The notes under the pieces: generated by a model
Told to the model about the DNA's origin: nothing
The model's database searches: none
Seen by the model: only the letters and a program-made list of their open reading frames with translations
Shown here: positions 123 to 42,923 of the stretch, one piece after another
Layout: each line of letters begins with the position of its first letter
Position numbering within the stretch: position 1 is the stretch's first letter
Translations under genes and position numbers: made by a program
Origin: a virus
Taxonomy: Duplodnaviria > Caudoviricetes
DNA length: 59,441 bases
IMG/VR virus record: IMGVR_UViG_3300030104_000577
Location: 1-59,441 of that record
Reading direction: 5' to 3' (one strand)

Positions 123-2546
123 TTATTCCCCTTTTAGTTTTTCTATTTCTGCTGAAAGTTCTTGGATTGCTTTTACTAGCATTGGTATAACTGCTGTTTC
201 ACCAACTCTTTGTTGTCCAGCAGGATCATCGTCGTCCCACATACTAAAACCATCTTTAATATCGCTGTGTTTATCAATAGCTGCTTTAACTTCTTGAGCT
301 ATAAAGCCGTGTTGAGATTTAGAGTTTTTATAAACTTCTGTAGAGTCTTTTTCATAACCTCTAAAGTTTTCAGGTAGATCACCTTTATTTCTATAATTAA
401 AAGTTACTGGTCGAAGATCGTTGATAAAAGCTAAACCTACAGTAGAGTCTTCAATATCTTTCTTAACTCTTTCATCTGATACTTCTGCCCAAGATGTACT
501 TCCGTGTCCTGTCCGAATATCAGAAGCACCTTGACCTATAGTTGTGTAGTTGTCTTGGCACGAAAGATTTAATCCAAAACCATTAGCATTACTACTACCT
601 GCTGATGTTGTAAGAACGTTAGCACCAACTAATGTATTAGATGAGCCTGTTGTTGTCGTATCTCCAGCATCATCTCCAATATATGTGTTTGAACTGCCTG
701 TGGTGTTTGCGTATCCAGCACCAATACCAACTGCCACATTATTTGCACCTGAAGTATTTAAACCTAGTGAAGCATTACCTACAGCAACATTCAAAGTACC
801 AGTAGTATTAATATACATAGCACCTTGCCCTATAGCCACATTATTTGCACCTGTGGTAGTAAAAAACAGACTAGCATGTCCAAGAGCTGTGTTAGCACCA
901 GCAGTAGTATTATTATAAAGCGCCCTGTAACCAAGTGCTGTGTTTTCAGATCCAGTAGTATTGTCAGTTAATGCCTCTGCACCAAAAGCTGCATTTTGAT
1001 TTCCAGTAGTGTTTGCATCTGCAGCGGCAGAACCCATCGCAGTATTTTTAGCACCAGTTGTATTTGCACCTAAAGCATAATAACCTACTGCTGTATTTTC
1101 TTGTGATGTAGTGCTTAATCTTAAACATTCATAACCAAGTGCAGTATTGTAATTTCCAGTAGTATTTGTTCTTAAAGCACCTGAACCGACTGCTGTGTTT
1201 TCAGTACCTGTTGTATTTTCTGTTAAAGCAGTTGAACCGACTGCTGTGTTGTTAGCTGCTGTGGTATTCTCGCTTAAAGCTCCGTAACCTATTCCTGTAT
1301 TTGTTGATCCAGTTGTATTTTTTCCTAAAGAGCTATAACCCATTGCCGTGTTATTTGAGCCAGTTGTATTTGCATCCATGGAAATTGCACCAACTGCCAC
1401 ATTATCTGTACCTGTTGTGTTTACTGTTAAAGCAAAATAACCAACTGCTGTGTTATCATCTGCTGTTGTGTTAGATCCTAAAGCACTTTGACCAATAGCA
1501 ACGTTATTTTCTCCTGTAGTATTAGCATCTAAAGAATAAGAACCTACTGCTACATTTTTAATACCTGTTGAAATTAATTTTCCAGAATTATAGCCAATAG
1601 TGACATTTTTCTCACCTGTGGTTATTGCTTCTCCAGCACCTCTTCCAAGAGCAGTATTTTTAGTACCTGTGGTAATTGCTGCACCCGAATTAAACCCAAC
1701 AACTGTATTATCATCACCAGATGTTAAAGCTGCAAAAACATCAACACCTAAACCAGTATTGTTGTTAGCAGCGTCTATAGTTCCTGTAGCATTGTCTCCA
1801 AGCATAATTGAAGAAGTACCAAATGCTTTATAATTTAATGCTGAACCATTAATAGTTAGTGCATCAGTTTCTAAAGTTCCATCGATGTCTGCATCACCTG
1901 AAATATCTAAAGCTGTACCAATAAGTGTTTGTGTAAATGTTACTTGCCCATTAGAAGCAATAGTTATAGCATCTACGTCTGAAGCAGAACCAATTGTTTT
2001 GCCATCACCAATAATCAAATCATCAGTTAGTGTAACTATACCTGTAACACCTAAAGTGCCACCTATAGTCGCATCATCTGTAACTGTTAGATCATCTTGT
2101 ACTTTTAAATCTACTACGTTTAAACTGGCAAAAGCATCAACAACCGCAGCTCCTGAACCAGCACCATCTAGGTAAACTGCTTTAGTATCACCAGCAGGTA
2201 TGGTTACATTTGCCCCACTACCTTGTGAAATAATAATGTTTTGCGAACCACTTGTGCCATTCTCAATAAAGTGCAAACGACTAAGTGTGTTTGGTGCTAT
2301 TGTAATAGTACAAGCTGAATCGAGTGTTCCAGTGTATTTAATATAGATTGACCTAGCAGGGTCTGTTGCACCATCAGCTACAGTTGAAGTGTGTGTGTCT
2401 GCATTTGTTGTTATTGCTTCTGTACCAAAACTTAATCCTTCTGCAATAAGCTCTAAGTTGGTATTTGTTGTTGTACCCCACGTTCCTGACGCATCACCTG
2501 TCGCCATTTCGTTGAGTCTTAAATCATTTACATATGTACTTGCCAT
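123..2546 (-). CDS. Tail fibre/receptor-binding protein with 14-aa beta-roll repeats and C-terminal intramolecular chaperone (peptidase S74-like)
   Basis: Many NTAxGxxALxxNTTG repeats; C-terminal SDERVKKDI...GFIAQEV...LVKAIQEL chaperone signature. Confidence 0.85.
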   Translation of the reverse strand: MASTYVNDLRLNEMATGDASGTWGTTTNTNLELIAEGLSFGTEAITTNADTHTSTVADGATDPARSIYIKYTGTLDSACTITIAPNTLSRLHFIENGTSGSQNIIISQGSGANVTIPAGDTKAVYLDGAGSGAAVVDAFASLNVVDLKVQDDLTVTDDATIGGTLGVTGIVTLTDDLIIGDGKTIGSASDVDAITIASNGQVTFTQTLIGTALDISGDADIDGTLETDALTINGSALNYKAFGTSSIMLGDNATGTIDAANNNTGLGVDVFAALTSGDDNTVVGFNSGAAITTGTKNTALGRGAGEAITTGEKNVTIGYNSGKLISTGIKNVAVGSYSLDANTTGENNVAIGQSALGSNTTADDNTAVGYFALTVNTTGTDNVAVGAISMDANTTGSNNTAMGYSSLGKNTTGSTNTGIGYGALSENTTAANNTAVGSTALTENTTGTENTAVGSGALRTNTTGNYNTALGYECLRLSTTSQENTAVGYYALGANTTGAKNTAMGSAAADANTTGNQNAAFGAEALTDNTTGSENTALGYRALYNNTTAGANTALGHASLFFTTTGANNVAIGQGAMYINTTGTLNVAVGNASLGLNTSGANNVAVGIGAGYANTTGSSNTYIGDDAGDTTTTGSSNTLVGANVLTTSAGSSNANGFGLNLSCQDNYTTIGQGASDIRTGHGSTSWAEVSDERVKKDIEDSTVGLAFINDLRPVTFNYRNKGDLPENFRGYEKDSTEVYKNSKSQHGFIAQEVKAAIDKHSDIKDGFSMWDDDDPAGQQRVGETAVIPMLVKAIQELSAEIEKLKGE

Positions 2547-17998: not shown

Positions 17999-18027
17999 TT
18001 TACTTTTATATACTTTTATTATAGACT
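17999..18027 (+). promoter_or_regulatory. Sigma70-like promoter
   Basis: TTTACT-N17-TAGACT preceded by A-tracts; near-identical copy at 18867-18895 on minus strand. Confidence 0.65.
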
Positions 18028-18097
18028 ATAAGGGTATTAATTAATAGGGTAATTAATACTAACTACTAAATAGTAACCCTAAATAAAGGAAAACAAA

Positions 18098-18334
18098 ATG
18101 TCAAAAACTACTAAAAAAGCTAAAGTCGCTGTAAAAGTTAACTTAGGCGGTTTACCAGAAAACGCGGTTTATACTAAAACTGGTAAAATAGCTAGGGCGG
18201 TTCATAACGCTGAGCGTCACGAGTTATATAACGGTAAAACGGTCAAGGAAATATTAAGTATCAAACCTACCGTTATGACCCCAGCGGATATTAAGTATGA
18301 TGTAAAAGTAGGGTTCATCACCTTAGAAAGTTAA
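18098..18334 (+). CDS. Small basic early protein, paralog 1
   Basis: AAGGA RBS, own promoter and terminator; highly similar to 18559..18789. Confidence 0.85.
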   Translation: MSKTTKKAKVAVKVNLGGLPENAVYTKTGKIARAVHNAERHELYNGKTVKEILSIKPTVMTPADIKYDVKVGFITLES

Positions 18335-18347
18335 GGTAACTCCCCTC

Positions 18348-18376
18348 AGGGCTACGGTAAAACGTAGCCCTTTTTT
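18348..18376 (+). terminator. Rho-independent terminator
   Basis: AGGGCUACG-GUAAAA-CGUAGCCCU then U-tract. Confidence 0.85.
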
Positions 18377-18531
18377 ACGCACAGAAAACAGTTCAGATCA
18401 GATTATGAACTACTTTATATATAGAACTAGACTTAGTATATAGGTCTGTTCTGATCTGAAAAAGCAGATATGGTTTACAGAGCAATATGGTTTACAGAGA
18501 ATCGTTCAGATCTGAATATTAGGGGTAAAGG

Positions 18532-18558: not shown

Positions 18559-18789
18559 TTATTCAATAGTTATAAACCCCGTTTTTACATCATACTTGAT
18601 ATCTGCGAGGGTCATCCTAGTAGGTTTAAGCGATAAGATCTCTTTTATAGTTTTACCGTTAAACTCTTCGTGACGTTCCGCGTTATGAGTAGCGCGGGCT
18701 ATTTTCCCAGTAGCGGTATAAATACCAGCGGGAGCGAACGGTCCACAGTTCACTTTTACTTCTTGAGGTTTAGTAGCTTTTTTAGCCAT
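18559..18789 (-). CDS. Small basic early protein, paralog 2
   Basis: AAGGTGA RBS; shares TGKIARAxHNAERHExxNGKTxKEILSxKPT...ADIKYDVKxGFIT with paralog 1. Confidence 0.85.
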   Translation of the reverse strand: MAKKATKPQEVKVNCGPFAPAGIYTATGKIARATHNAERHEEFNGKTIKEILSLKPTRMTLADIKYDVKTGFITIE

Positions 18790-18866
18790 TATAATCACCT
18801 TTATTTAGGGTTATTTAGTAGTAGATTTATTAGTATAATCACCCTATTAATTAAACTAATGACTAT

Positions 18867-18895
18867 ATCATATTATAAAAGTATATAAAAGTAAA
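18867..18895 (-). promoter_or_regulatory. Sigma70-like promoter
   Basis: TTTACT-N17-TATGAT, duplicate of the promoter at 17999. Confidence 0.65.
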
Positions 18896-19267
18896 GGGAT
18901 GATCACTAATTAATTTTATCCCCTGTTCAGATCGCAATGTGATCCGAATGTAATCTCAATCACATCAGAACCAGACAATATAACATGGTCAATGGTCCAT
19001 TGTTCAGATCAGAAAAAGCTCGGATGGTTTACAGACGTTCAGATCCTATTGGCTATTGGCTGAAAGTCCAGATTTCGTGGTCCATGGTCCATTCCTGTAG
19101 GATTTTTGTCCGTGAACGTGATCATGATGCAACCTAGTTTCTATATACAACGGTCCAGAGTCCACAGACCACTGTCTAAAGATCTTTCACATGCTTTATC
19201 ACACCTTCACCATTATTACCATCAAGTTACCATCGACCACAGTCCATGGTCATATTACCTGTTCCAA

Positions 19268-23767: not shown

Positions 23768-24253
23768 CTATTTATAGAGCATAAACTCCTTATCAAGATC
23801 GTACCTGATATCTTTAGCTTCTACTCTAAGAGTTGCTAGAGCTTCCCTTACTGTCATACCATCTAAGTCGCTATGACGCTCTGCGTTCTCTTTAGACCTA
23901 GCCATTTTTGCTGGGTTATTCACTATAACCCGATCCATGTCTAGACCTTTTACTGCTACTTTATCTTTCGATTTTTTTACAGCGGTTTTAAGGTTAGTCT
24001 TCGTTACTTTTAACTTCCCTATCTTAGCTGTATTTTTAAGTGCTGCTTGTTTCATTGCACCCATTTGCTTACCCTCCTCTGGCTCTCGCCAAGTTATATT
24101 ACGGTTGTTGTACATATGGAAGACTCGTTTAACCTCACCTTCCTCTTGATACTCAGCGGTAAATTGTACGGAGAGCAGAGATTTGACGGTAGCTTCATGC
24201 CATAAATCTTTGTGACATGTTACTAATACTTTATCTGTTCTCGGTGCTCTCAT
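23768..24253 (-). CDS. Early protein whose C-terminal part is paralog 3 of the 18.1/18.6-kb proteins; probable internal start at 24064
   Basis: KMARSKENAERHSDLDGMTVREAL...KDIRYDLDKEF aligns with paralogs; GAGGAG RBS precedes internal MGAMKQ. Confidence 0.7.
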   Translation of the reverse strand: MRAPRTDKVLVTCHKDLWHEATVKSLLSVQFTAEYQEEGEVKRVFHMYNNRNITWREPEEGKQMGAMKQAALKNTAKIGKLKVTKTNLKTAVKKSKDKVAVKGLDMDRVIVNNPAKMARSKENAERHSDLDGMTVREALATLRVEAKDIRYDLDKEFMLYK

Positions 24254-24317
24254 AAAATTTATCCTAAGTATTAAAAGTATATAAACTAATATAACGAAAG
24301 TATAGGAAGATCACTAT

Positions 24318-25236: not shown

Positions 25237-25600
25237 TGGCTTGTCATCTCCGACCTATTTTAATGACTAACTTAGCTTACCTTCATACGAGCGATCAACC
25301 TCAACGAGTCTGTAAGTACCACAAAACAAAAAAGCGAGAGAGGCTTGGAGTCTGGCTACACTCAGGAATTTACTTTAACTCTCAACTTAGCACGATTCGG
25401 ATAAACTTGATTAGGGAGTCTCCGAACTTTGTCCTTTTATTACCTCAGTATGTACCTCTCTCTTTTACTCAAAGGGACTGCGTTAACCCCGTATGTCCCT
25501 AAGCAGATTAAGGAGCTCTGTAAACTGGCTGCTGGGTTCTGTTTACTTTCGAGATCTCTAGCCACCGAGCACTCCTCAATCCTAGGTTATTACTAACCTT
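25237..25600 (-). ncRNA. Large structured non-coding RNA of unknown class
   Basis: About 360 nt without a credible ORF, higher GC than flanks, at least five helices, GUAA tetraloop, stem plus U-tract at 25328. Confidence 0.6.
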
Positions 25601-25644
25601 AACTATATTAAAACTTAGAACTATAAGAATAAAAAGGATTATCC

Positions 25645-26127
25645 TTAATCAGTTTTATCTTCATAGTCCCCTTCTATAAGTGTTCCTGCAGGTAATATAC
25701 CACCTGTTTCATGATATATCTCTTTCATTCTTGCAAGTATTTGATCTTTATTCATAGTCTCTACTTTGTTCACAAGTATCTCACTACGATTCACATACAA
25801 TCCTGCTGCTTTACCTCTGTTAACCTCGGCTGTAACTGCAGCAGACCACGCACCATTACGCATAGCACCGTCACGAATATCCTTGAGATCTGTTAGATGT
25901 GTAGACAGATCAACTACCGCCTTATCTGCTGCTTTGGCTTGTAGTTCTTGTATGCGTTTCTTGACTACAGGGTTTTTATCACTAGACAACACAGTACCAG
26001 CTCTACCAGCATTTTTATCACTGTATCCTGCTTTCTTCGCAGCGTCTTTTTTCTTCATACCTTTCGCTACGTTCTGAGCAAACTTTTCTTGCTTCGGTGT
26101 GAGTTTCTTACTCACGCTATCCTCCAC
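25645..26127 (-). CDS. terS: Terminase small subunit
   Basis: LTPKQEKFA...AAKKAGYS...NPVVKKRIQEL HTH signature; A.V.RGKAAGLY. Confidence 0.75.
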   Translation of the reverse strand: MEDSVSKKLTPKQEKFAQNVAKGMKKKDAAKKAGYSDKNAGRAGTVLSSDKNPVVKKRIQELQAKAADKAVVDLSTHLTDLKDIRDGAMRNGAWSAAVTAEVNRGKAAGLYVNRSEILVNKVETMNKDQILARMKEIYHETGGILPAGTLIEGDYEDKTD

Positions 26128-35191: not shown

Positions 35192-36688
35192 TTAAACAAA
35201 CAAAAACTCCTTCCTAGTTCTTCCTTGCACTATATGCAGATTACTCTTAGTTCTAGTAACTCCGACATAAAACGCACGGCACTCATTATCTGGATTATTG
35301 TATAGCTCTTCCCAAGTTTTCGTAGCTAAATCTGTAAGTAGAACAACATTATCTGCCTCGCCACCTTTTGCTGCGTGGATAGTGTTCAGTTTTATTTTAG
35401 AGGATACTAGATTTTCACCTCTGCGTAAACAAGATATTAAATATTCTCTCTGTGTATTACCTATAAGATCAAATGATTCATGCCATATACCGTCTACTAA
35501 TAAACCGTAGTTTGCTTTTAAGTTTTCTATGTTTAACTGAGCGTCCGCATTTACCGTTTTAAGCGTCTTAAAACCTTTTTTAATACCTGTACCAGCCTTC
35601 ATATATTTAAGGATTCTACGTATCCTTTCCGCACTGATCTTATTACCTTTTCTCAAGTGTTCCCAATCTTTTATAGCAGTCACCAAACTTTCAGATACAG
35701 ATGGTTTGTTATTTTTCTGGAAAACTCTACCACTTAGTTTAAGATAGTTTTCTACATTATTCAGTAGATAATTATTTCTTGCTAAAAACAACCACTCACC
35801 GTCTGATAAATCAACATGCTCAAAACTGGTGTGGTACGAAACACTGCCCTCTTCTACTTTAGGCTCCCAGACTTTTTCTTTTCTGTTACTTATCCTACTC
35901 ACAACTTTCAACGCTATATCGTGCACTTTTCTAGGTATGCGATAAGACTGTTTTAGATATGTGTGATTACCTTTTAGATTTATGAAGTGTTCAACATCTG
36001 CACCTGCCCATCTATAAATAGCTTGATCGTCGTCACCAGCGATGTATACATGGTCCACACCTTCGGCTAACTTTTCTACGCATCTCCACTGTAGTGTGGA
36101 TAAATCTTGTGCTTCATCTATTATCAGTACGTCTAATTCTGGTTTACCTTTTGAGGATAAAAACATTTCTAACATATCAGTATAATCTATGAGAAAATAC
36201 GCTTCCTTATATTTTGCATAACTCTTTACAAACCACTCAAAATGCATCCAAGATATATTAGAACCTGAATTATTCCATATTTCTCTTTGCCCCATACATT
36301 GATTACGAGCCATATTCTCTAGGAAAAGCATTCTATCACCTTTGCTAGACAGAGCCATCATATTTTCTCCATCCCAAGCTGAGTTTATACGCTCTCCTAT
36401 ACTCTTACTAAAGTTACGAAGATTACTTCGTGACATTACATCGCTTCTAGTCATTCCTAACCAACCATAGCAAAGTGAATGTAGTGTTCTAAAATATGTT
36501 AACTCATCTGGATCAAATCCAAACTTCACGACAGCTCTAGACAATGCTTCATTTGCTGCTTTCTTAGTAAACGCTATATAACCTAACTTATCTGGTCTCA
36601 CACCAGAGTCCAGATACTCTTCTACTTTATTTAATAGGTAGGTAGTTTTACCAGTTCCAGGTGGACCAAGGACAATGTTCCAAGTCAC
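35192..36688 (-). CDS. UvrD/Rep-like SF1 helicase
   Basis: GPPGTGKT, IIDEAQD, GDDDQAIY, TIHAAKGGEAD, YVGVTR. Confidence 0.9.
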   Translation of the reverse strand: MTWNIVLGPPGTGKTTYLLNKVEEYLDSGVRPDKLGYIAFTKKAANEALSRAVVKFGFDPDELTYFRTLHSLCYGWLGMTRSDVMSRSNLRNFSKSIGERINSAWDGENMMALSSKGDRMLFLENMARNQCMGQREIWNNSGSNISWMHFEWFVKSYAKYKEAYFLIDYTDMLEMFLSSKGKPELDVLIIDEAQDLSTLQWRCVEKLAEGVDHVYIAGDDDQAIYRWAGADVEHFINLKGNHTYLKQSYRIPRKVHDIALKVVSRISNRKEKVWEPKVEEGSVSYHTSFEHVDLSDGEWLFLARNNYLLNNVENYLKLSGRVFQKNNKPSVSESLVTAIKDWEHLRKGNKISAERIRRILKYMKAGTGIKKGFKTLKTVNADAQLNIENLKANYGLLVDGIWHESFDLIGNTQREYLISCLRRGENLVSSKIKLNTIHAAKGGEADNVVLLTDLATKTWEELYNNPDNECRAFYVGVTRTKSNLHIVQGRTRKEFLFV

Positions 36689-38196
36689 AAACTACTCTCT
36701 GTGAAGTTCTTAGTTTCTAAAGAGGTATTCTCTTCATCATACTTAAACTCTTTAATGTACCAGACATTAGTGCCTCTACCTTTTATATTCCAAAACTTAT
36801 GCTCTGCTTTTAAATCTCTTAACTTAGAAGCAATACGGTTAGTTTCCATATCTGTAAATCTATGCTTCACTAAATAATCTTTTAAGTCTTTGATTCTAAA
36901 GTATGTTTTACCGTCTTCTGTGTACGGTTTGCCTAGTAGTATCTCATCTCTTGTGTTAGCTTGAGCCATGTCTGTGCAGAAAGATTCAAGTAACTCCATA
37001 AACTGACCTTCTATGGTGACGTCATCACTGACCTCTATAATTTCCATACCGCTGTCCATCAAAGTTTGTATCAGGGTTTGCCACGCTCTTTCTTGCATTT
37101 TAGGTGGCATCATATTAAGTATTTCCATACAAGCTCTTTGAAACTTGATTTGATTCTGTAATTGCTCAGTGGTTAGTTCTAACCTTTTATCATCTATTGA
37201 TAAAAACCATAACGGTGGTTTAGTGTCTAGTTTAGATAAACTAGAGAATGTAGGAGTAGCATTACTACCGCCTATACCGAACTTACAACCACGACACCTA
37301 GCCACATTACAATAAGACCTAATAGGTTCGTCACTGCATTTATAGTTATACTCTTTCTTTTTGAGTGTACCTATGAGGGTTATAACTTCTTGCGCAGGTA
37401 GTGGTGGTTGAACATACTTACGGTTGTATTCTTCTATTTCAGTTTGCCATGTTTCGGGTGTAGACTTTTTAAGGTAAACCCCAACATTAAATAAACCATT
37501 GTTCCTGGTTCCTTGTGGAAAACCTTGCTTGAGTAATACTTGTAAACAAGGTGGACCATCTTTTATGTCATCAAGTGTAGGAACTTCTAAATCTATTAAT
37601 TTTTCATAGTCTAGAGATCTTTTTTCTACAAACTCTATAAATTCAGATACAGTTAATGCATCTCCTTTAGAGTCATAAGCGTATCTTAAAGATTCATCGC
37701 CTTCAAAATACGGCATGTTTAGCCATGAGCCTATATCTCCTCTATCAACCAATACTTCTCGTTGTTTAGGAAATATCTCAACACCACCGTAACCTAAACC
37801 AGCAGATATCTCTCTTAATTTATCCTGCATATCTCCAGCAGGTGCTTTATCTTTTAGGAAACAGTATACATGAGCACCACCGCTCTTGCTTCTACATACA
37901 ACTAACGGTAGTTTAAATTCTTCTATTTTTAATACTAACTTCTTTATGTCTAGTGAGTATGTATCTATATCTATTGCGCCCCACTTTACATGATTCTCTT
38001 CATCAATAGGTACTACACCCAGTCCACGAACACCATCTATGTGGTCTTTCCAGTGCTTAACACTAGAACCCATAGTCTTTATAGTTTTAGCAGTACCTTG
38101 TTTTTTCTGACCGACTGATGTGTTGTTTACTATAAAACTACCATGAGCACGGGAGGATCCGTAGAATATATCATGTAGTTTTTGTGCTGTGTCCAA
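36685..38196 (-). CDS. Primase (AEP-type with PriCT-like domain)
   Basis: WGAIDID, RSKSGGAH, EIFPKQ, LNMPY, PPCL...GTRNN. Confidence 0.75.
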   Translation of the reverse strand: MDTAQKLHDIFYGSSRAHGSFIVNNTSVGQKKQGTAKTIKTMGSSVKHWKDHIDGVRGLGVVPIDEENHVKWGAIDIDTYSLDIKKLVLKIEEFKLPLVVCRSKSGGAHVYCFLKDKAPAGDMQDKLREISAGLGYGGVEIFPKQREVLVDRGDIGSWLNMPYFEGDESLRYAYDSKGDALTVSEFIEFVEKRSLDYEKLIDLEVPTLDDIKDGPPCLQVLLKQGFPQGTRNNGLFNVGVYLKKSTPETWQTEIEEYNRKYVQPPLPAQEVITLIGTLKKKEYNYKCSDEPIRSYCNVARCRGCKFGIGGSNATPTFSSLSKLDTKPPLWFLSIDDKRLELTTEQLQNQIKFQRACMEILNMMPPKMQERAWQTLIQTLMDSGMEIIEVSDDVTIEGQFMELLESFCTDMAQANTRDEILLGKPYTEDGKTYFRIKDLKDYLVKHRFTDMETNRIASKLRDLKAEHKFWNIKGRGTNVWYIKEFKYDEENTSLETKNFTESSL

Positions 38197-38219
38197 CTAA
38201 ACGCTCCCTTTGCGTAATT

Positions 38220-38274
38220 TATCGAGACCCTCTACTCTCCTTTACCTAGAAAAGAAAGTAAAGGATCGTCGATA
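38220..38274 (-). promoter_or_regulatory. Long intergenic hairpin between SSB and primase genes (attenuator/processing site)
   Basis: UAUCGA..GAUCCUUUACUUUCUUU / AAAGGAGAGUAGAGGGUC.UCGAUA with several G-U pairs on minus strand. Confidence 0.55.
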
Positions 38275-38281
38275 GTTTAAG

Positions 38282-39070
38282 TTAAAATGGTGCTTCGTCA
38301 GGTGATGCTGTCGAGGCTGGCGGTGCATCTACATTTACAGTTTCAGCAAAACCTTTTGCTATCTCATATAAATGTAACTCACTTTCTTCAATGATGCCTA
38401 TTAAGTCAATGTTCCAACCAAACCAAGTACCACGGTCGTTGGACTCTTGTACCGTAGTTAGTTTATACTTATGACTGTATGAAGGCGGTGTATATACATT
38501 ACCCTCACTACCTTTTAGTTTGATACTAGACATAACAGAGTTCCATGTACGAGACTTCTTCAACTGTGTGTTAGCCATTGGTATCATGACTTGTTGAAAC
38601 GAGTCACCTTCAATAGTTAAAACATAGTGCGTAGCTGAGGTCTGTATGTAATTACCGTTAGGCAATACATCTGCATACCTCTCATCTTTTTTAGTTTCAG
38701 CTAGTATACTTGCGTCTGTGTGTTGATTCACTAAACCACCGCCACTCTCGCGAGGTTGCCACTCTAAATACATACGCTTATATGCGACAGGTAATACAAT
38801 CAAAGGGTTATCCTCTGTGTACAGTTGTTTTGTAACTGTGTTTACTACGTCACCTGCTGCTGCGCCTTCGATATAGCCACCATCGCGTTTATTTACCTCT
38901 GGGCTAAGAGCCTGTAAGATTTTTAAACGAGGTATCGTGAGGTCGTCTTGACTAACATTCTCAAGACCTTTACCTGAATCTACCTCAAACGAAGCTCCTA
39001 AACTAGCGAGAGCTGTTGAAGTTTTCTTAGCTACTTGTTTATCTTCACTTTTTACTTTTTCTTCACTCAT
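38282..39070 (-). CDS. Single-stranded DNA-binding protein (putative)
   Basis: D..IPRLKILQALSPEV, QLKKSRTWN, acidic DEAPF tail; replication context. Confidence 0.65.
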   Translation of the reverse strand: MSEEKVKSEDKQVAKKTSTALASLGASFEVDSGKGLENVSQDDLTIPRLKILQALSPEVNKRDGGYIEGAAAGDVVNTVTKQLYTEDNPLIVLPVAYKRMYLEWQPRESGGGLVNQHTDASILAETKKDERYADVLPNGNYIQTSATHYVLTIEGDSFQQVMIPMANTQLKKSRTWNSVMSSIKLKGSEGNVYTPPSYSHKYKLTTVQESNDRGTWFGWNIDLIGIIEESELHLYEIAKGFAETVNVDAPPASTASPDEAPF

Positions 39071-39627
39071 TATTTATTTACCTTAGTTTTTTGACCTATA
39101 TAGACATTAAAGGTATCCAAGGGTAGGTCGTTCCCTTGTTCTACCTGCTCTCTGACAAGAGCTTTCAAAGTCATAGGCTCTACCCACTTCTTTTGAGTAA
39201 GTGTGTGCCCATCTTTTTCTAGCTGTGCCATGAGTTCTTGAGCTACTTCGTCTTCACCTCTGCCGAAGTTAGCTGAAACTGTATTCTTGATAACGTCACC
39301 TAATCCGTTACTTTCAAGCCAGTTGAAACATAATTCTTTATTTTCAGGAGTTATCCTAGCTGAGTAATATGGTTGAATAGACAATTTAGTTCCGTCAAGT
39401 AACTTAAACTCACTTATACCGACCTCTCTTAATTTATCTGGTATAGTCTCTTCACTTAGTTTTTTATAATCTGCTTTTAAGTGTTTAAGTTTTTGTTCCT
39501 CGATCTCTATCTTTTGTTCTAAATCTGTTAACTGTGATCCTAACGAACCGATGTCTGCTAGATCTTTGATCTTTATTTTGGTGTCGCTCTTTGCGTCTTC
39601 CTCGAACATTTGTTCAGGTGGTTTCAT
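39070..39627 (-). CDS. Conserved replication-module protein
   Basis: Start MKPPE after GAGGT; WL..NGLGDVIKN, VEPMTLKA motifs. Confidence 0.7.
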   Translation of the reverse strand: MKPPEQMFEEDAKSDTKIKIKDLADIGSLGSQLTDLEQKIEIEEQKLKHLKADYKKLSEETIPDKLREVGISEFKLLDGTKLSIQPYYSARITPENKELCFNWLESNGLGDVIKNTVSANFGRGEDEVAQELMAQLEKDGHTLTQKKWVEPMTLKALVREQVEQGNDLPLDTFNVYIGQKTKVNK

Positions 39628-39644
39628 AATACATACCTCTTTAT

Positions 39645-39797
39645 AATTAGTGGCGATGTGTCTTAGTCGAGTAGGGTATCTACGCACCTAAAGGTGAAGT
39701 GCTATGTAGTTATCTCGACCTGTTTTTATGGTAAGCAAAATAGTAAGACTTGAGGCAGCATCGCCGACTACCTGTCGCTACTACTAAATAGCCCTAT
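39645..39797 (-). ncRNA. Structured 5' leader / antisense RNA of replication operon
   Basis: Nested helices GGCGAUG/CAUCGCC, GUCUUA/UAAGAC, GUCGAG/CUCGAC, CUAC/GUAG, GCAC/GUGC. Confidence 0.65.
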
Positions 39798-39801
39798 TAG
39801 T

Positions 39802-39830
39802 ATTATATAGAATTAAAATTAATAAAAGCA
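39802..39830 (-). promoter_or_regulatory. Putative promoter of replication operon
   Basis: TGCTTT-N17-TATAAT, predicted start about 39795. Confidence 0.5.
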
Positions 39831-39838
39831 CTTTAATA

Positions 39839-39941
39839 AAATATTTAAGATTTGCTAATAAGCTAATAATGTAAACTCTGAATCTCTCTGTATTTAAGCT
39901 ACTCAGATAGCTATTGACAAACCTATTAACCCCATATTACC
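39839..39941 (-). repeat. 103-bp element, copy 2 (origin-like)
   Basis: Collinear ungapped with 19268-19370 in inverted orientation. Confidence 0.65.
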
Positions 39942-40028
39942 TATATATAAGTAATACTAAAACATGATGCTAGTTATTTACTTAATATATACTTTATACT
40001 TTAAACTAACTTATATAAAGGAACTAAG

Positions 40029-41471
40029 TTGGAACAATTTTATTTTAAAACTAAACCTTACGATCACCAACTAGACGCATTAAACATATCTTACGATAAA
40101 GAAAAGTTTGCGTTATTTATGGAGATGGGTTGTGGTAAATCAAAAGTCGTTATAGACAACTTTGTATATCTACACAAGCACAATAAAATAAATGGTGTTT
40201 TAATATTAGCTAATAAAGGTGTGTATGATACATGGTACAGTAAAGAAATACCAGCACACACACCAGATGATATAGAAATTACTTTAGTTAAGTGGTCAAA
40301 CTCAAACTCTCAGAAAAATAAAAAGTTGTTACAGTCTCTATATGAAGATCCTAATAAACTTAATATATTAGTTATGAACACTGAGGCATTGAGCACGAAG
40401 AAAGGTACACAGTTCGCTACTAATTTTCTATTTAAGTGTAAAACTATGTTTATTATAGACGAAAGTACAACGATTAAAAATCATAAAGCTAAGAGGACTG
40501 TGAACGCTGTACGCATAGGTAAGTACGCACATTATAAAAGAATATTAACAGGTAGTCCTGTAACTAAAAGTCCACTAGATTTATATAGTCAGTGTTACTT
40601 TTTAGACCCAGCATTACTAGGTTTCAATAGTTACTATGCATTTAGAACTAGGTATGCCAATCTAGTAGAGAGTTCTGCTGGCGGTAGAACTTTTAAGTTG
40701 GTTACAGGATATAAAAACTTAGAAGAACTAAACCAACTTATCGGTAAGTTTAGTTACAGAGTTCTTAAAAAAGATTGTTTAGATTTACCAGACAAAGTTT
40801 ATTTGAAACGTGTCATACAGATGACAGATGAACAGAAACGAGTCTATAAAGATTTACAAAAGAAAGCAGAGTCTTTATTAGCAGGCAGTAAAGTTACTAT
40901 AACACATTTGATTACTCAAGTTATAAGACTACATCAAATATCCTGTGGTTTTATAAAATTAGATAACGGTGCTCTCACAGAATTACCTTCATACAGGATG
41001 GCTGAACTATTAAGCGTATTAGAAGAAGCAGACGGTAAGGTAATTATCTGGGCGAACTACAGACACGACATACAAAAGATAGAGAAAGAACTTACAAAGC
41101 TCTACGGTGCAGAGTCCGTGGGCACTTATTATGGTGACGTTAGTCAAGAAGATAGAGAAGATGTTATTAATAATTTTCAAGATAAAGAACATCCTCTTAG
41201 GTTTTTTGTAGGTAATACACAAACAGGTGGCTACGGTATCACACTGACTGCTGCAAGTACAGTGGTATACTACTCTAATAATTATGACCTAGAAAAAAGG
41301 TTACAGTCAGAGGACAGAGCGCACCGTATAGGTCAAACGAATAAAGTTACTTATATAGATATAGTTTGTGAACGCACAGTAGATGAGAAGATAGTAAAAG
41401 CACTACGTCAAAAACAGAATATAGCGCAGACAGTACTGGGCGAAGAACAGTGGAAAGATTGGTTACTATAA
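40029..41471 (+). CDS. SNF2-like SF2 helicase
   Basis: EMGCGKS, IIDEST, LTGSP, GYGITLT, QSEDRAHRIGQ. Confidence 0.9.
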   Translation: MEQFYFKTKPYDHQLDALNISYDKEKFALFMEMGCGKSKVVIDNFVYLHKHNKINGVLILANKGVYDTWYSKEIPAHTPDDIEITLVKWSNSNSQKNKKLLQSLYEDPNKLNILVMNTEALSTKKGTQFATNFLFKCKTMFIIDESTTIKNHKAKRTVNAVRIGKYAHYKRILTGSPVTKSPLDLYSQCYFLDPALLGFNSYYAFRTRYANLVESSAGGRTFKLVTGYKNLEELNQLIGKFSYRVLKKDCLDLPDKVYLKRVIQMTDEQKRVYKDLQKKAESLLAGSKVTITHLITQVIRLHQISCGFIKLDNGALTELPSYRMAELLSVLEEADGKVIIWANYRHDIQKIEKELTKLYGAESVGTYYGDVSQEDREDVINNFQDKEHPLRFFVGNTQTGGYGITLTAASTVVYYSNNYDLEKRLQSEDRAHRIGQTNKVTYIDIVCERTVDEKIVKALRQKQNIAQTVLGEEQWKDWLL

Positions 41472-42923
41472 ACCGAAAGTAGCCAAACCACCATAGTTCA
41501 TCATCATACGACCACGACCTAATCTAGCTCTACGATTTCTTTCTACAGGGGACATTGTTGTTTCGTTCACTGCTGACAATGATGGCAATCCTGTTACTGG
41601 AGCTGGTACATTAAATCCAGACACTAACTCAAAATTAGTAGGCACTGGGTTTGGCTCAACCCTTGTACTCATCGGAGCATTCGCAGGTGCCATAACTCCA
41701 CCGAAACCTATTGAAGCCTGTAGTTCTGCTAATCTTCTGGCAGTTTCTTCACGAGTAAGAGGTCTATTACCTGCACGCATCGCATCAAACTCAGCATCTC
41801 TTCTTGCTTTGTCTATATCGTATTGACCAGACTCAGTGTACTCGTTACGACCAGACTCAAAACTAGAACCAGCAGCACCATATAAAGTTTGCATAGCACT
41901 TGCTAAATCATTGGCTCTACTCGCTTCCATCTGTGCATTAAATGCAGCATGAGAATCACCTAATGCTTTTAGATAATTTGGACTACCTTTTGGACCTTTT
42001 GAAGAAGCATACTTACCAGAGGTCACATTTGGACCTTGTTGCTTAAAGTCAGGTATTCCATCATTGTTTCTATCTCCGAACGATACTCCTGGACCAGTTG
42101 TTCCTGGAGTGAATCCCATAGTTCCTGATGAAGTTGATCTACCTTCCTCGTCTCTACCACTAATCCTTGATCTAGCAGGATTTCCCACATCTCTCTCCAT
42201 GAGAGCTTTTTCTACTTGATCTATGCCACTACGTTCTATGTAATCTTGAAGTGCTTTTTGATTTTCAGGTAAAGTCATGTCCATTCCTGCAACTGCTTCT
42301 ACACCTGCTTGGTCTAATACACCTGCTGCTCCTAATTGTTTAGCAAATGTACCAATCCCGCCTTCTTGATTCACTATGTTACTCGCCATGCTTCCCATAG
42401 TCCCACCCTCAGGAACAGAAAAAACATTTCCAGCTTTAGTTTGAAATACTCCAGCATACTCTTCAGGAGTGCCCTCGTACAAATTAGGTTCTCCACGTGG
42501 GCTATATGTGTCTAAAGTTCCTACTCCATAAGTACCTATTGGGTCAGCAGCATATGTTTCAAAACCACCTAACCCGCCACCGCTAAGACTACCGCCCATA
42601 TTAACTGCTGCACTTGCTGCTCCAGGAACACCGTACATTGTTTCTTTACCTGTCAAAGATTCTGTAAGTGGATCTGTAGTAGGGTCAACAGGCTGTGGTT
42701 CAGGGACTCTGTTTGCTAAAAAATTACCATAAGTGTCTCTCTGCATGGCATCTAGATTAACCTGATCTAGCATAAATCCAGGTGGATCAATTCTTCCTGG
42801 ATTGACTAAATCTTCTGTAGTGAAACGACTAGTGTTCCTAAAATTATCCATGAAGTTACCGCCTACAGACGGTAGTCCTTCTCTGGTTTCTATATTAGAA
42901 ACTATGTCTGATAATATCCCCAT
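41466..42923 (-). CDS. Internal virion/ejection protein (putative)
   Basis: Gly-rich low-complexity ORF at end of ejection-protein cluster. Confidence 0.5.
   Translation of the reverse strand: MGILSDIVSNIETREGLPSVGGNFMDNFRNTSRFTTEDLVNPGRIDPPGFMLDQVNLDAMQRDTYGNFLANRVPEPQPVDPTTDPLTESLTGKETMYGVPGAASAAVNMGGSLSGGGLGGFETYAADPIGTYGVGTLDTYSPRGEPNLYEGTPEEYAGVFQTKAGNVFSVPEGGTMGSMASNIVNQEGGIGTFAKQLGAAGVLDQAGVEAVAGMDMTLPENQKALQDYIERSGIDQVEKALMERDVGNPARSRISGRDEEGRSTSSGTMGFTPGTTGPGVSFGDRNNDGIPDFKQQGPNVTSGKYASSKGPKGSPNYLKALGDSHAAFNAQMEASRANDLASAMQTLYGAAGSSFESGRNEYTESGQYDIDKARRDAEFDAMRAGNRPLTREETARRLAELQASIGFGGVMAPANAPMSTRVEPNPVPTNFELVSGFNVPAPVTGLPSLSAVNETTMSPVERNRRARLGRGRMMMNYGGLATFGL

Follow-up and report, generated by a model that had tools for sequence, protein, structure and literature searches.

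We analyzed the replication operon of an uncultured marine phage of the class Caudoviricetes, using a stretch of 59.4 kb that corresponds to the whole or near-whole virus record IMGVR_UViG_3300030104_000577 (positions 1 to 59,441; referred to as "the window", and as G000 in genome comparisons). Upstream of the first operon gene, the minus strand encodes a leader RNA with a pseudoknot supported by covariation and preceded by an invariant 5′ tail. This leader represents a new and widespread family in marine phages and is absent from Rfam 15. The tail is complementary to the start regions of the mRNAs of two small paralogous genes, here called paralog 1 and paralog 2, which lie 21 kb away. We consider it plausible, although unproven, that the tail pairs with these start regions in trans, and we assign this reading a probability of roughly 0.45.

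As proposed here, positions 39796-39625 (minus strand) would form the 5′ leader of the replication-operon mRNA, in which a putatively single-stranded invariant tail (..GGG..UAGUAGUAG..) is followed by an H-type pseudoknot and then by a short spacer leading to the Shine-Dalgarno (SD) sequence of the DUF7307 gene, the first gene of the operon. The TATAAT −10 box of the operon promoter (39802-39807, minus strand) is kept in all relatives that carry the leader. Just 5 nt past TATAAT (39807-39802), the minus strand reads the 19-mer TAGGGYTATTTAGTAGTAG (TAGGGCTATTTAGTAGTAG) at 39796-39778, and the spacing from the −10 box alone would place the transcription start at about 39796-39794. This 19-nt seed is included in the tail UAGGGCUAUUUAGUAGUAGCGAC (39774-39796, minus strand), which is the most conserved part of the structured leader. 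Its core GGUAGUAG, which is not part of the covarying helices, shows no change in any of the 21 compact relatives. An invariant core beside helices that vary with compensation argues for sequence-specific use of an unpaired segment.

Relatives of the operon were collected by protein-guided searches, which returned 3 and then 9 viral contigs, and from metagenome contigs, where 80 of the 249 stretches encoding a relative were kept. Marine phage contigs contained 30 distinct leader variants. The consensus after TATAAT is (A)AUAGGG-(0-11 nt)-UAGUAGUAG-(1-5 nt)-AGGUAG-U-GGCGGUG-CUGCCU-..AAGUC..hairpin..GAC-A-CACCGCC, in which AGGUAG pairs with CUGCCU (helix a) and GGCGGUG, located in the helix a loop, pairs with CACCGCC further downstream (helix b), forming an H-type pseudoknot that encloses a variable hairpin (helix c). 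On the minus strand of the window, helix a is formed by AGGUAG (39768-39773) and CUGCCU (39753-39758), with 39768-39773 facing 39758-39753. The 5′ strand of helix b, GGCGAUG (39759-39765), pairs with CAUCGCC (39658-39652), and helix c is formed by GUCUUA (39744-39749) and UAAGAC (39665-39660). The 3′ strands of helices c and b, separated by a single A, together occupy 39652-39665. The window leader additionally carries a clade-specific insert with a further hairpin (GUCGAG/CUCGAC).

Covariation within this structure is extensive. In an alignment of 21 compact leader variants made with MAFFT (A4), 85.1% of the cells were paired, compared to 31-48% with slid partners; 9 pairs changed on both sides, and the covariation score was reached by 0 of 500 column shuffles. 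Helix b was 100% paired, partly by construction because its pairing was a selection criterion for the variants, and its compensatory forms include GGCGGUG/CACCGCC, GGCUGUG/CACAGCC, GACGGUG/CACCGUC, GACGGUG/CAUCGUC and GGUGGUG/CACCACC. Helix a was 86.5% paired, with 3 pairs changed on both sides. Here the search expression fixed only the outer GG/CC and left the inner positions free, and the inner pairs varied as GGUAU/AUGCC, GGUAC/GUGCC and GGUGU/ACGCC. For helix c, pairing was 60.8% in an alignment in which MAFFT misaligns this variable hairpin; variant L003 has GUCCGU/GCGGAC. No Rfam family, C4 or any other, matched at the gathering threshold over the window or at E<=10 over 39560-39860.

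An alternative role of the tail within the leader, as a second partner for the 3′ strand of helix a, was rejected. The tail stays GGGUAG in variants in which that strand changes (L111, L117), and such indifference indicates that it is constrained as a sequence rather than as a cis partner. In one DNA run (X3), a single metagenome contig matches 39344-39501 and 39777-39887, with 264 other letters replacing the 275-nt leader body. Promoter and tail are thus kept where the insert-bearing body (39501-39777) is replaced.

These features could also belong to a leader that acts in cis only. Tail and pseudoknot would then serve as a protein-binding site, for example an autogenous one as in T4 gene 32, or as a stability element. 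The complementarity would be a by-product of simple (UAG)n/(CUA)n words shared by tail and 5′ untranslated regions (UTRs), with the paralog UTR resembling its own Thr-Lys-rich N-terminal coding sequence. We regard this explanation as somewhat unlikely, although the pseudoknot, which is strongly supported, widespread and independent of any target, fits it well. According to PMC3014915, the autoregulatory leader of T4 gene 32 combines a 5′ pseudoknot with an A/U-rich unstructured stretch up to the ribosome-binding site. The leaders described here likewise have a 5′ H-type pseudoknot at the head of a replication module, and the distance from pseudoknot to AUG varies from ~26 to ~105 nt with A/U-rich spacers in many relatives, which is the kind of arrangement outlined there for the gene 32 operator. 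Unlike gene 32, they show no sequence or Rfam similarity to it, an invariant tail of 12-25 nt precedes the knot, and the spacer in the window is only ~26 nt. The first gene product also differs, since DUF7307 has no recognised single-stranded DNA (ssDNA)-binding fold. Foldseek gave nothing at E<=0.001 for its predicted model (pLDDT 74.7), nor could the protein be given an RNA- or ssDNA-binding fold, which counts against a role confined to cis.

Pairing in trans is suggested by the complementarity between the tail and the 5′ UTRs of the two small paralogs. At 18806-18824, the plus strand carries a near-copy of the 19-mer, TAGGGTTATTTAGTAGTAG, which is therefore complementary to the minus-strand mRNA of paralog 2; the mRNA site CUACUACUAAAUAACCCUA lies at −35 to −17 from the ATG and complements the tail at 18 of 19 positions. 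The paralog 1 site (18062-18081, plus strand) consists of ACTACTAAATAG (18062-18073), complementary at 12 of 12 positions, and CCCTA (18077-18081), complementary at 5 of 5, across a 3-nt bulge in the target. Both sites stop 3-4 nt short of the SD. A preliminary description of the window had reported these two matches and their position a few nucleotides before the SD, and all three points were borne out. The exact 10-mer core TATTTAGTAG has three copies in the window, all of them at the leader, paralog 1 and paralog 2 sites. With up to 3 mismatches, the 19-mer had 2 matches against 0.06 expected, and two or more were found in 0 of 100 shuffles.

The preliminary description had also suggested ranking the matches against shuffled controls, and paralogs 1 and 2 came out above them. 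Dinucleotide-shuffled tails were scored by the best duplex they form around the starts of the two small paralogs (−90 to +30), and as good a duplex as that of the real tail was obtained by 0 of 500 shuffled tails in the window, 0 of 500 in G002 and 6 of 500 in G003, the latter two being the closest complete relatives. If the leader acted in cis only, the 18/19 match and the 17/17 match with a bulge would be left unexplained. Genome-wide, we ranked the best tail duplex among all 120-nt segments on both strands, which placed paralog 2 at 12/3929 and paralog 1 at 72/3929 in the window. Several segments that outrank them contain the same site, or a second one within the coding sequence of paralog 2. 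The small paralogs ranked at 4/4303 and 17/4303 in G002, and at 24/3151 and 123/3151 in G003. When the whole 153-nt leader was used in RNAduplex, a blunt comparison because long loops are allowed, 12 of 300 shuffled leaders did as well for paralog 1 and 11 of 300 for paralog 2. When the whole leader was cofolded with the UTR of paralog 2, the intermolecular helix of 19 nt persisted and the net gain was −18.4 kcal/mol.

The second site mentioned above lies at 18700-18729 (minus strand, paralog 2 coding region), where AAAUAGCCC faces GGGCUAUUU, together with GCUACU. It has the best duplex energy of the genome scan (−26.3 kcal/mol) and may be due to chance because it encodes the conserved TGKIARA motif. 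The paralog 2 5′ UTR with its motif and SD (18750-18821; repeat family D7) is 70% identical to the gene's own N-terminal coding stretch 45 nt downstream, and the UTR motif may have originated by duplication of a Thr-Lys coding word. The same identity is one of the points that favor a leader acting in cis only, with complementarity as a by-product.

The closest relatives also bear on pairing between the tail and the paralog mRNAs. DUF7307 is 83% identical to that of the window in G002 and 74% in G003, and the arrangement is kept in both. In G002, the tail is TAGGGCTAGTTAGTAGTAG, the paralog 1 UTR CTACTACTAACTAACCCTA (18/19) and the paralog 2 UTR CTACTACTAATTAACCCTTA, with G.U at the changed position; in G003, the tail is TAGCGTTAGTTAGTAGTAA, the paralog 1 UTR TACTAACTAACTAAACCGTA and the paralog 2 UTR (reverse complement) AAGGGTTAGTTAGTTAGTTG. 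Position 9 of the tail is U in the window (UAUUUAG) and G in G002 and G003 (UAGUUAG), and this change is mirrored by an A-to-C change (AAAUA to AACUA) in the paralog UTRs of the same two genomes. The co-change concerns one position only, in three informative genomes, and a substitution shared by tail and UTRs over these genomes is not accounted for by a leader acting in cis only. The preliminary description had made conservation and covariation in relatives a test of the pairing; this position changes as pairing would require, a pattern equally expected from constraint at the DNA level, and the GGG/CCC part of the duplex in G003 does not co-vary with the leader (see below).

The proposed targets do not extend to the third gene. 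Paralog 3 (161 aa; 23768-24253, minus strand) is related to paralogs 1 and 2 in its C-terminal half only. The preliminary description had claimed all three paralogs as targets, based for this gene on a leader 10-mer, UUUGCUUACC (39730-39739, minus strand), which lies at the junction of the clade-specific insert and is complementary to the spacer of an internal SD-AUG of paralog 3 (~24079-24056, minus strand). The 10/10 match is real: the word TTTGCTTACC occurs exactly at 39730-39739 (minus) and 24064-24073 (plus), with 2 copies found against 0.16 expected. It did not stand out from shuffled controls, as 81 of 300 shuffled leaders had as good a whole-leader energy at the internal start and 258 of 300 at the annotated start. 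Of the leader complementarity to paralog 3, a 7-mer is left in G002, and neither partner has it in G003. Given the shuffle result and this loss in relatives, the match was treated as possible chance and paralog 3 is probably not a target, so the claim of complementarity holds for two genes rather than three. Long paralog-3-like genes also never rank in the genome scans (605/3929 to 3107/4303).

The internal SD-AUG of paralog 3 is kept in the window, G002 and G003. GGAGG(G)UAAGC is kept between the window and G002 although the reading frame differs (GKQ vs VSE), and conservation of nucleotides despite this difference favors an internal start. The arrangement suggests a second, shorter paralog 3 product of ~98 aa, about as long as the separate paralogs of 95-105 aa that distant relatives have.

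Five distant genomes carry both the leader and small paralogs: G007 (complete, with terminal repeats), G008, G010, G011 and G013. In G007, G008 and G010, the three whose paralog UTRs were read, these UTRs contain no complement of the tail and have a different hairpin before the SD. That the tail is invariant even in G007 and G008, where the paralog UTRs lack a complement, is in line with a function of the leader in cis. The best tail match was found instead at codons 3-7 (..CUACUACU..) in four of the five distant genomes (G007, G008, G010 and G013), and ~80 nt upstream of the ATG in G011. In the window, paralog 1 codons 4-8 (ACUACUAAAAAAG) form a second partial match to the tail.

The coding sequence at this location shows an unusual codon preference. 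Among 27 distinct small-paralog genes, ACU accounts for 64 of the 76 Thr codons (84%) located in codons 1-12, compared to 57 of 180 (32%) in the remainder of the same genes. The corresponding values for long open reading frames (ORFs) of the 8 genomes are 43% overall and 37% when just their first 12 codons are counted, ACA being the commoner Thr codon in that stretch. The bias is present in at least 8 sequence groups and points to nucleotide-level selection for (CUA)n at small-paralog start regions. A leader acting in cis only would not explain it, because ACA would suit an unstructured start just as well and is the commoner Thr codon at the N-termini of other ORFs.

Several observations weigh against pairing of the tail with the paralog mRNAs. 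The shuffled-tail controls in the five distant genomes are marginal, a result that also favors a leader confined to cis action outside the window clade: shuffled tails did as well as the real one in 38 of 500 cases in G007 (best small-paralog rank 24/4151), 23 of 500 in G008 (21/1721), 16 of 500 in G010 (112/3988), 24 of 500 in G011 (79/3518) and 87 of 500 in G013 (14/1534). Other small paralogs rank poorly, such as the 74-aa paralog of G007 (315/4151) and that of L158 in G010 (749/3988), and Fisher P values for the codon bias overstate independence because the sequences are related. Within the duplex, a C.A mismatch is conserved in both the window and G002. In the GGG/CCC part of G003, the leader has GCG, and the paralog 1 arms CGG/CCG (ACGGT/ACCGT) co-vary with each other. 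Clades with other tails exist, the tail being GGGUAAAUAGUUAGUAGUAG or GGGUAAGUAAUUAGUAGUAG in L039, L043, L085 and L115 and GGGUUAGUAGUAGUAG in L067; the complementary UTR predicted for the L039/L043 clade was not found in IMG/VR, where its contigs are fragments and the miss does not refute the prediction. For this clade, a first target pattern gave at least 117 stretches, and the matches listed included a single known paralog UTR and a single leader; with a stricter pattern there were 16 stretches, the two leaders being the only relevant ones.

The properties of the RNA add to these reservations. The replication promoter has a poor −35 element, and a consensus scan called no full sigma-70 promoter. 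In the single-sequence minimum free energy structure, the tail is partly paired in cis, and the whole leader folds no better than its shuffles (z = −0.88). A terminator scan found no terminator after the leader structure, hence no discrete small RNA is expected. Parts of 38300-40100 were present in 20 sequencing runs, including 2 RNA runs holding 0.11 and 0.07 of the words of this region; the RNA contigs from these two metatranscriptomes cover coding pieces only (39015-39231 and 38718-38873) and do not span the leader. Finally, co-variation of identical DNA words is a pattern that does not separate RNA pairing from a shared DNA-binding factor.

The last point leads to the possibility, already named in the preliminary description, that the shared word is a double-stranded DNA operator, usable in either orientation and read by a phage regulator. 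The small winged-helix-like paralogs might be that regulator and control both the replication promoter and their own genes. With respect to transcription, the motif has opposite orientations at the two loci, and at the replication promoter it begins within ~5 nt of the −10 box. TAATAGG occurs in the 5′ arms of the paralog UTRs and upstream of the replication promoter, with 4 of its 9 genome copies in these regions, and relatives have AATAG(G) repeats in the same intergenic region. In addition, the paralogs are embedded among iteron-like repeats, and many structural neighbors of their predicted model are of winged-helix type (Z up to 4.3). We nevertheless find an operator quite unlikely. In the window the word lies ~45 nt downstream of the paralog promoter-like site, and in distant relatives it lies within codons 3-7, as is usual for control of translation rather than of a promoter. 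None of the 8 genomes is enriched in TAGTAGTA, nor is the window in TAATAGG (9 found vs 11.4 expected), and the fold matches of the paralogs are weak (Z<=4.3; no Foldseek match at E<=0.001). The arms of the UTR hairpin differ between G007 and G008 by G-C/G.U and A-U/G.U changes, and such G.U-type differences are RNA-like rather than those of a DNA palindrome, pointing to constraint at the RNA level.

The divergent intergenic region itself (39850-39935, minus strand, upstream of the replication promoter) contains AATAG(G)-type words (TAATATGG, TTAATAGG and TCAATAGC) spaced by ~10-12 nt, besides two tandem copies of GCTAATAA; relatives have 3-5 such words there. These words are probably binding sites of proteins that control the divergent promoters.

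Overall, pairing between the leader tail and the paralog mRNAs is the reading that best fits the placement of the sites at start regions in every clade, the invariant unpaired tail, the co-change and the codon bias. Under this model, the tail would act in trans by base-pairing around the translation starts of the two small-paralog mRNAs, which would be short and monocistronic. In the window clade, the pairing site would lie directly upstream of the SD (−36 to −15) and pairing would open a small 5′ UTR hairpin, while in distant relatives it would lie over codons 3-7. The likely outcome would be lower translation or stability of the paralog mRNAs upon transcription of the replication operon, and the reverse direction is equally possible. 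A more specific and rather doubtful version envisages an mRNA-mRNA switch widespread in marine phages, in which a pseudoknot-anchored (UAG)n tail would act on (CUA)n words at small-paralog starts, maintained by the use of ACU, to couple a shut-off or turn-on to replication. As part of the same tentative picture, the small paralogs would be nucleic-acid-binding proteins, and the seed would have grown to 19 nt in the window clade and shifted to the 5′ UTR.

Trans-acting base-pairing RNAs derived from mRNA 5′ leaders exist, including dual-function leaders such as trans-acting riboswitch fragments. The proposed element resembles them in having a conserved, predicted unpaired seed at the 5′ end of a leader that is complementary to the start regions of distant mRNAs. 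Unlike them, it has no terminator or processing site, its partner would be a whole polycistronic mRNA, and it is known from sequence alone. The C4 antisense RNA of P1/P7 and the CI RNA of P4 are processed from operon leaders, and they are comparable as phage RNAs at the head of an operon that act by base pairing on phage messages, as proposed here. In contrast to C4 and CI, the targets here are on other transcripts 21 kb away rather than downstream in the same transcript, and the module is of a lytic-type marine phage rather than an immunity system.

The preliminary description had further read the circuit as silencing of possibly toxic proteins, perhaps by a type I antitoxin-like RNA, and this interpretation was not supported. 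The only likeness is the idea of an RNA that blocks translation of a small protein by pairing near the SD. The paralogs are 76-78 aa long, Lys-rich, alpha/beta in predicted fold and weakly winged-helix-like; they are soluble-looking, with a Lys/Thr-rich N-terminus, unlike small hydrophobic or membrane toxins, and the family is widely kept. The RNA (39.8 kb) neither overlaps nor adjoins the paralogs (18.1-18.8 kb), from which it is separated by 21 kb.

To our knowledge, post-transcriptional control in lytic phage programs is known from a handful of model phages only. If the tail does pair with the paralog mRNAs, it would represent a timing device within the phage, with the leader of a message in place of a dedicated small RNA. 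It would also illustrate how an antisense partner can constrain codon choice. Even without action in trans, the leader provides a new candidate cis-regulatory RNA motif for the DUF7307/Pam3 gp34-like/primase/helicase module.

The paralogs 1 and 2 themselves are clear paralogs in convergent orientation, each closed by a terminator-like hairpin. Paralog 1 (78 aa) occupies 18098-18334 on the plus strand, with its hairpin at 18348-18371. Paralog 2 (76 aa) occupies 18559-18789 on the minus strand; its hairpin lies at 18553-18534, and a promoter-like site (18895-18867) precedes the motif by ~45 nt. The predicted small-paralog model (pLDDT 81.8) is an alpha/beta fold with three helices and two strands; it had no Foldseek match at E<=0.001, and its best match in VIA-align was weak (Z 4.3), many neighbors being winged-helix domains (PriA WH, MarR, MecI and ArsR-like). 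The family is kept across many phages near genome ends, and the homologues in G007 adjoin the genome end or terminal repeat. In G003 (L009 ~1725-1745, minus strand), the paralog 1 homologue has no ATG at the expected start and its frame begins ATT ATT ATT AAT ACT, which could reflect an unusual start codon or a sequencing or assembly issue.

Iteron-like repeats flank paralogs 1 and 2 (18380-18520 and 18920-19095), including GTTCAGATC(A/T)GA five times in both orientations, ATATGGTTTACAGAG three times and GGTCCATGGTCCATT-type words. The same words occur in L004, L005 and L009, and the region may represent an origin of replication or else a genome end or packaging region. Upstream of all three paralogs and of an SNF2 helicase gene, in the correct orientation, lies the word TATATACTTT (as part of TTTACTT..TATATACTTT), with 4 exact copies in the window at 18007-18016 (plus), 18878-18887 (minus), 24274-24283 (minus) and 39986-39995 (plus). 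It may mark a shared promoter class distinct from the replication-operon promoter.

Nearly all genes of the window are on the minus strand. The first operon gene, encoding the Pam3 gp33-like DUF7307 protein (39070-39627, minus strand), directly follows the leader region; its SD (AAGAGG, 39641-39636) and ATG (39627-39625) together span 39625-39641 on the minus strand. In the operon served by the leader, the first four genes (35192-39627, minus strand) encode DUF7307, a Pam3 gp34-like protein, an AEP primase and a UvrD-type helicase. Genes for DNA polymerase and thymidylate synthase lie further along the operon strand, and the SNF2 helicase gene is divergent to the operon, starting from 40029. 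With genes of this kind in and around the operon, the term "replication-operon leader", taken over from the preliminary description, is a fair one. DUF7307 and the gp34-like protein had no solved relatives, with Atlas matches solely to their own families, and the Pam3 literature offered nothing usable on the function of either.

The sequencing runs containing the window are marine metagenomes. A megablast search of 38000-41500 against known phages gave no match, and distant blastn of the region gave similarity only in the helicase gene, to 4 records. The exact promoter-plus-tail 17-mer was found in 20 IMG/VR stretches, of which only the 3 known relatives were real, and a loose regular expression for a general TATAAT-N-AGGGT promoter class gave no convincing extra members. 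Many relatives, such as L075, L080, L195, L196 and many of L068-L141, have an additional ORF (..GDPA.IG.CTAVAA.YN.GRVKFLKWDNRE..) separating leader and DUF7307 gene, with a length of ~100-110 aa as judged by eye; the window has no such ORF at that place. Finally, at ~25545-25645 (minus strand), TAATATAGTTAAGGTTAGTAATAACCTAGGATTGAGGAGTGCTCGGTGGCTAGAG is nearly identical in the window and G003 and similar in G002. This stretch looks intergenic, contains a hairpin (AAGGTTAG..TAACCTAGG) and may be a further conserved RNA or a regulatory element.

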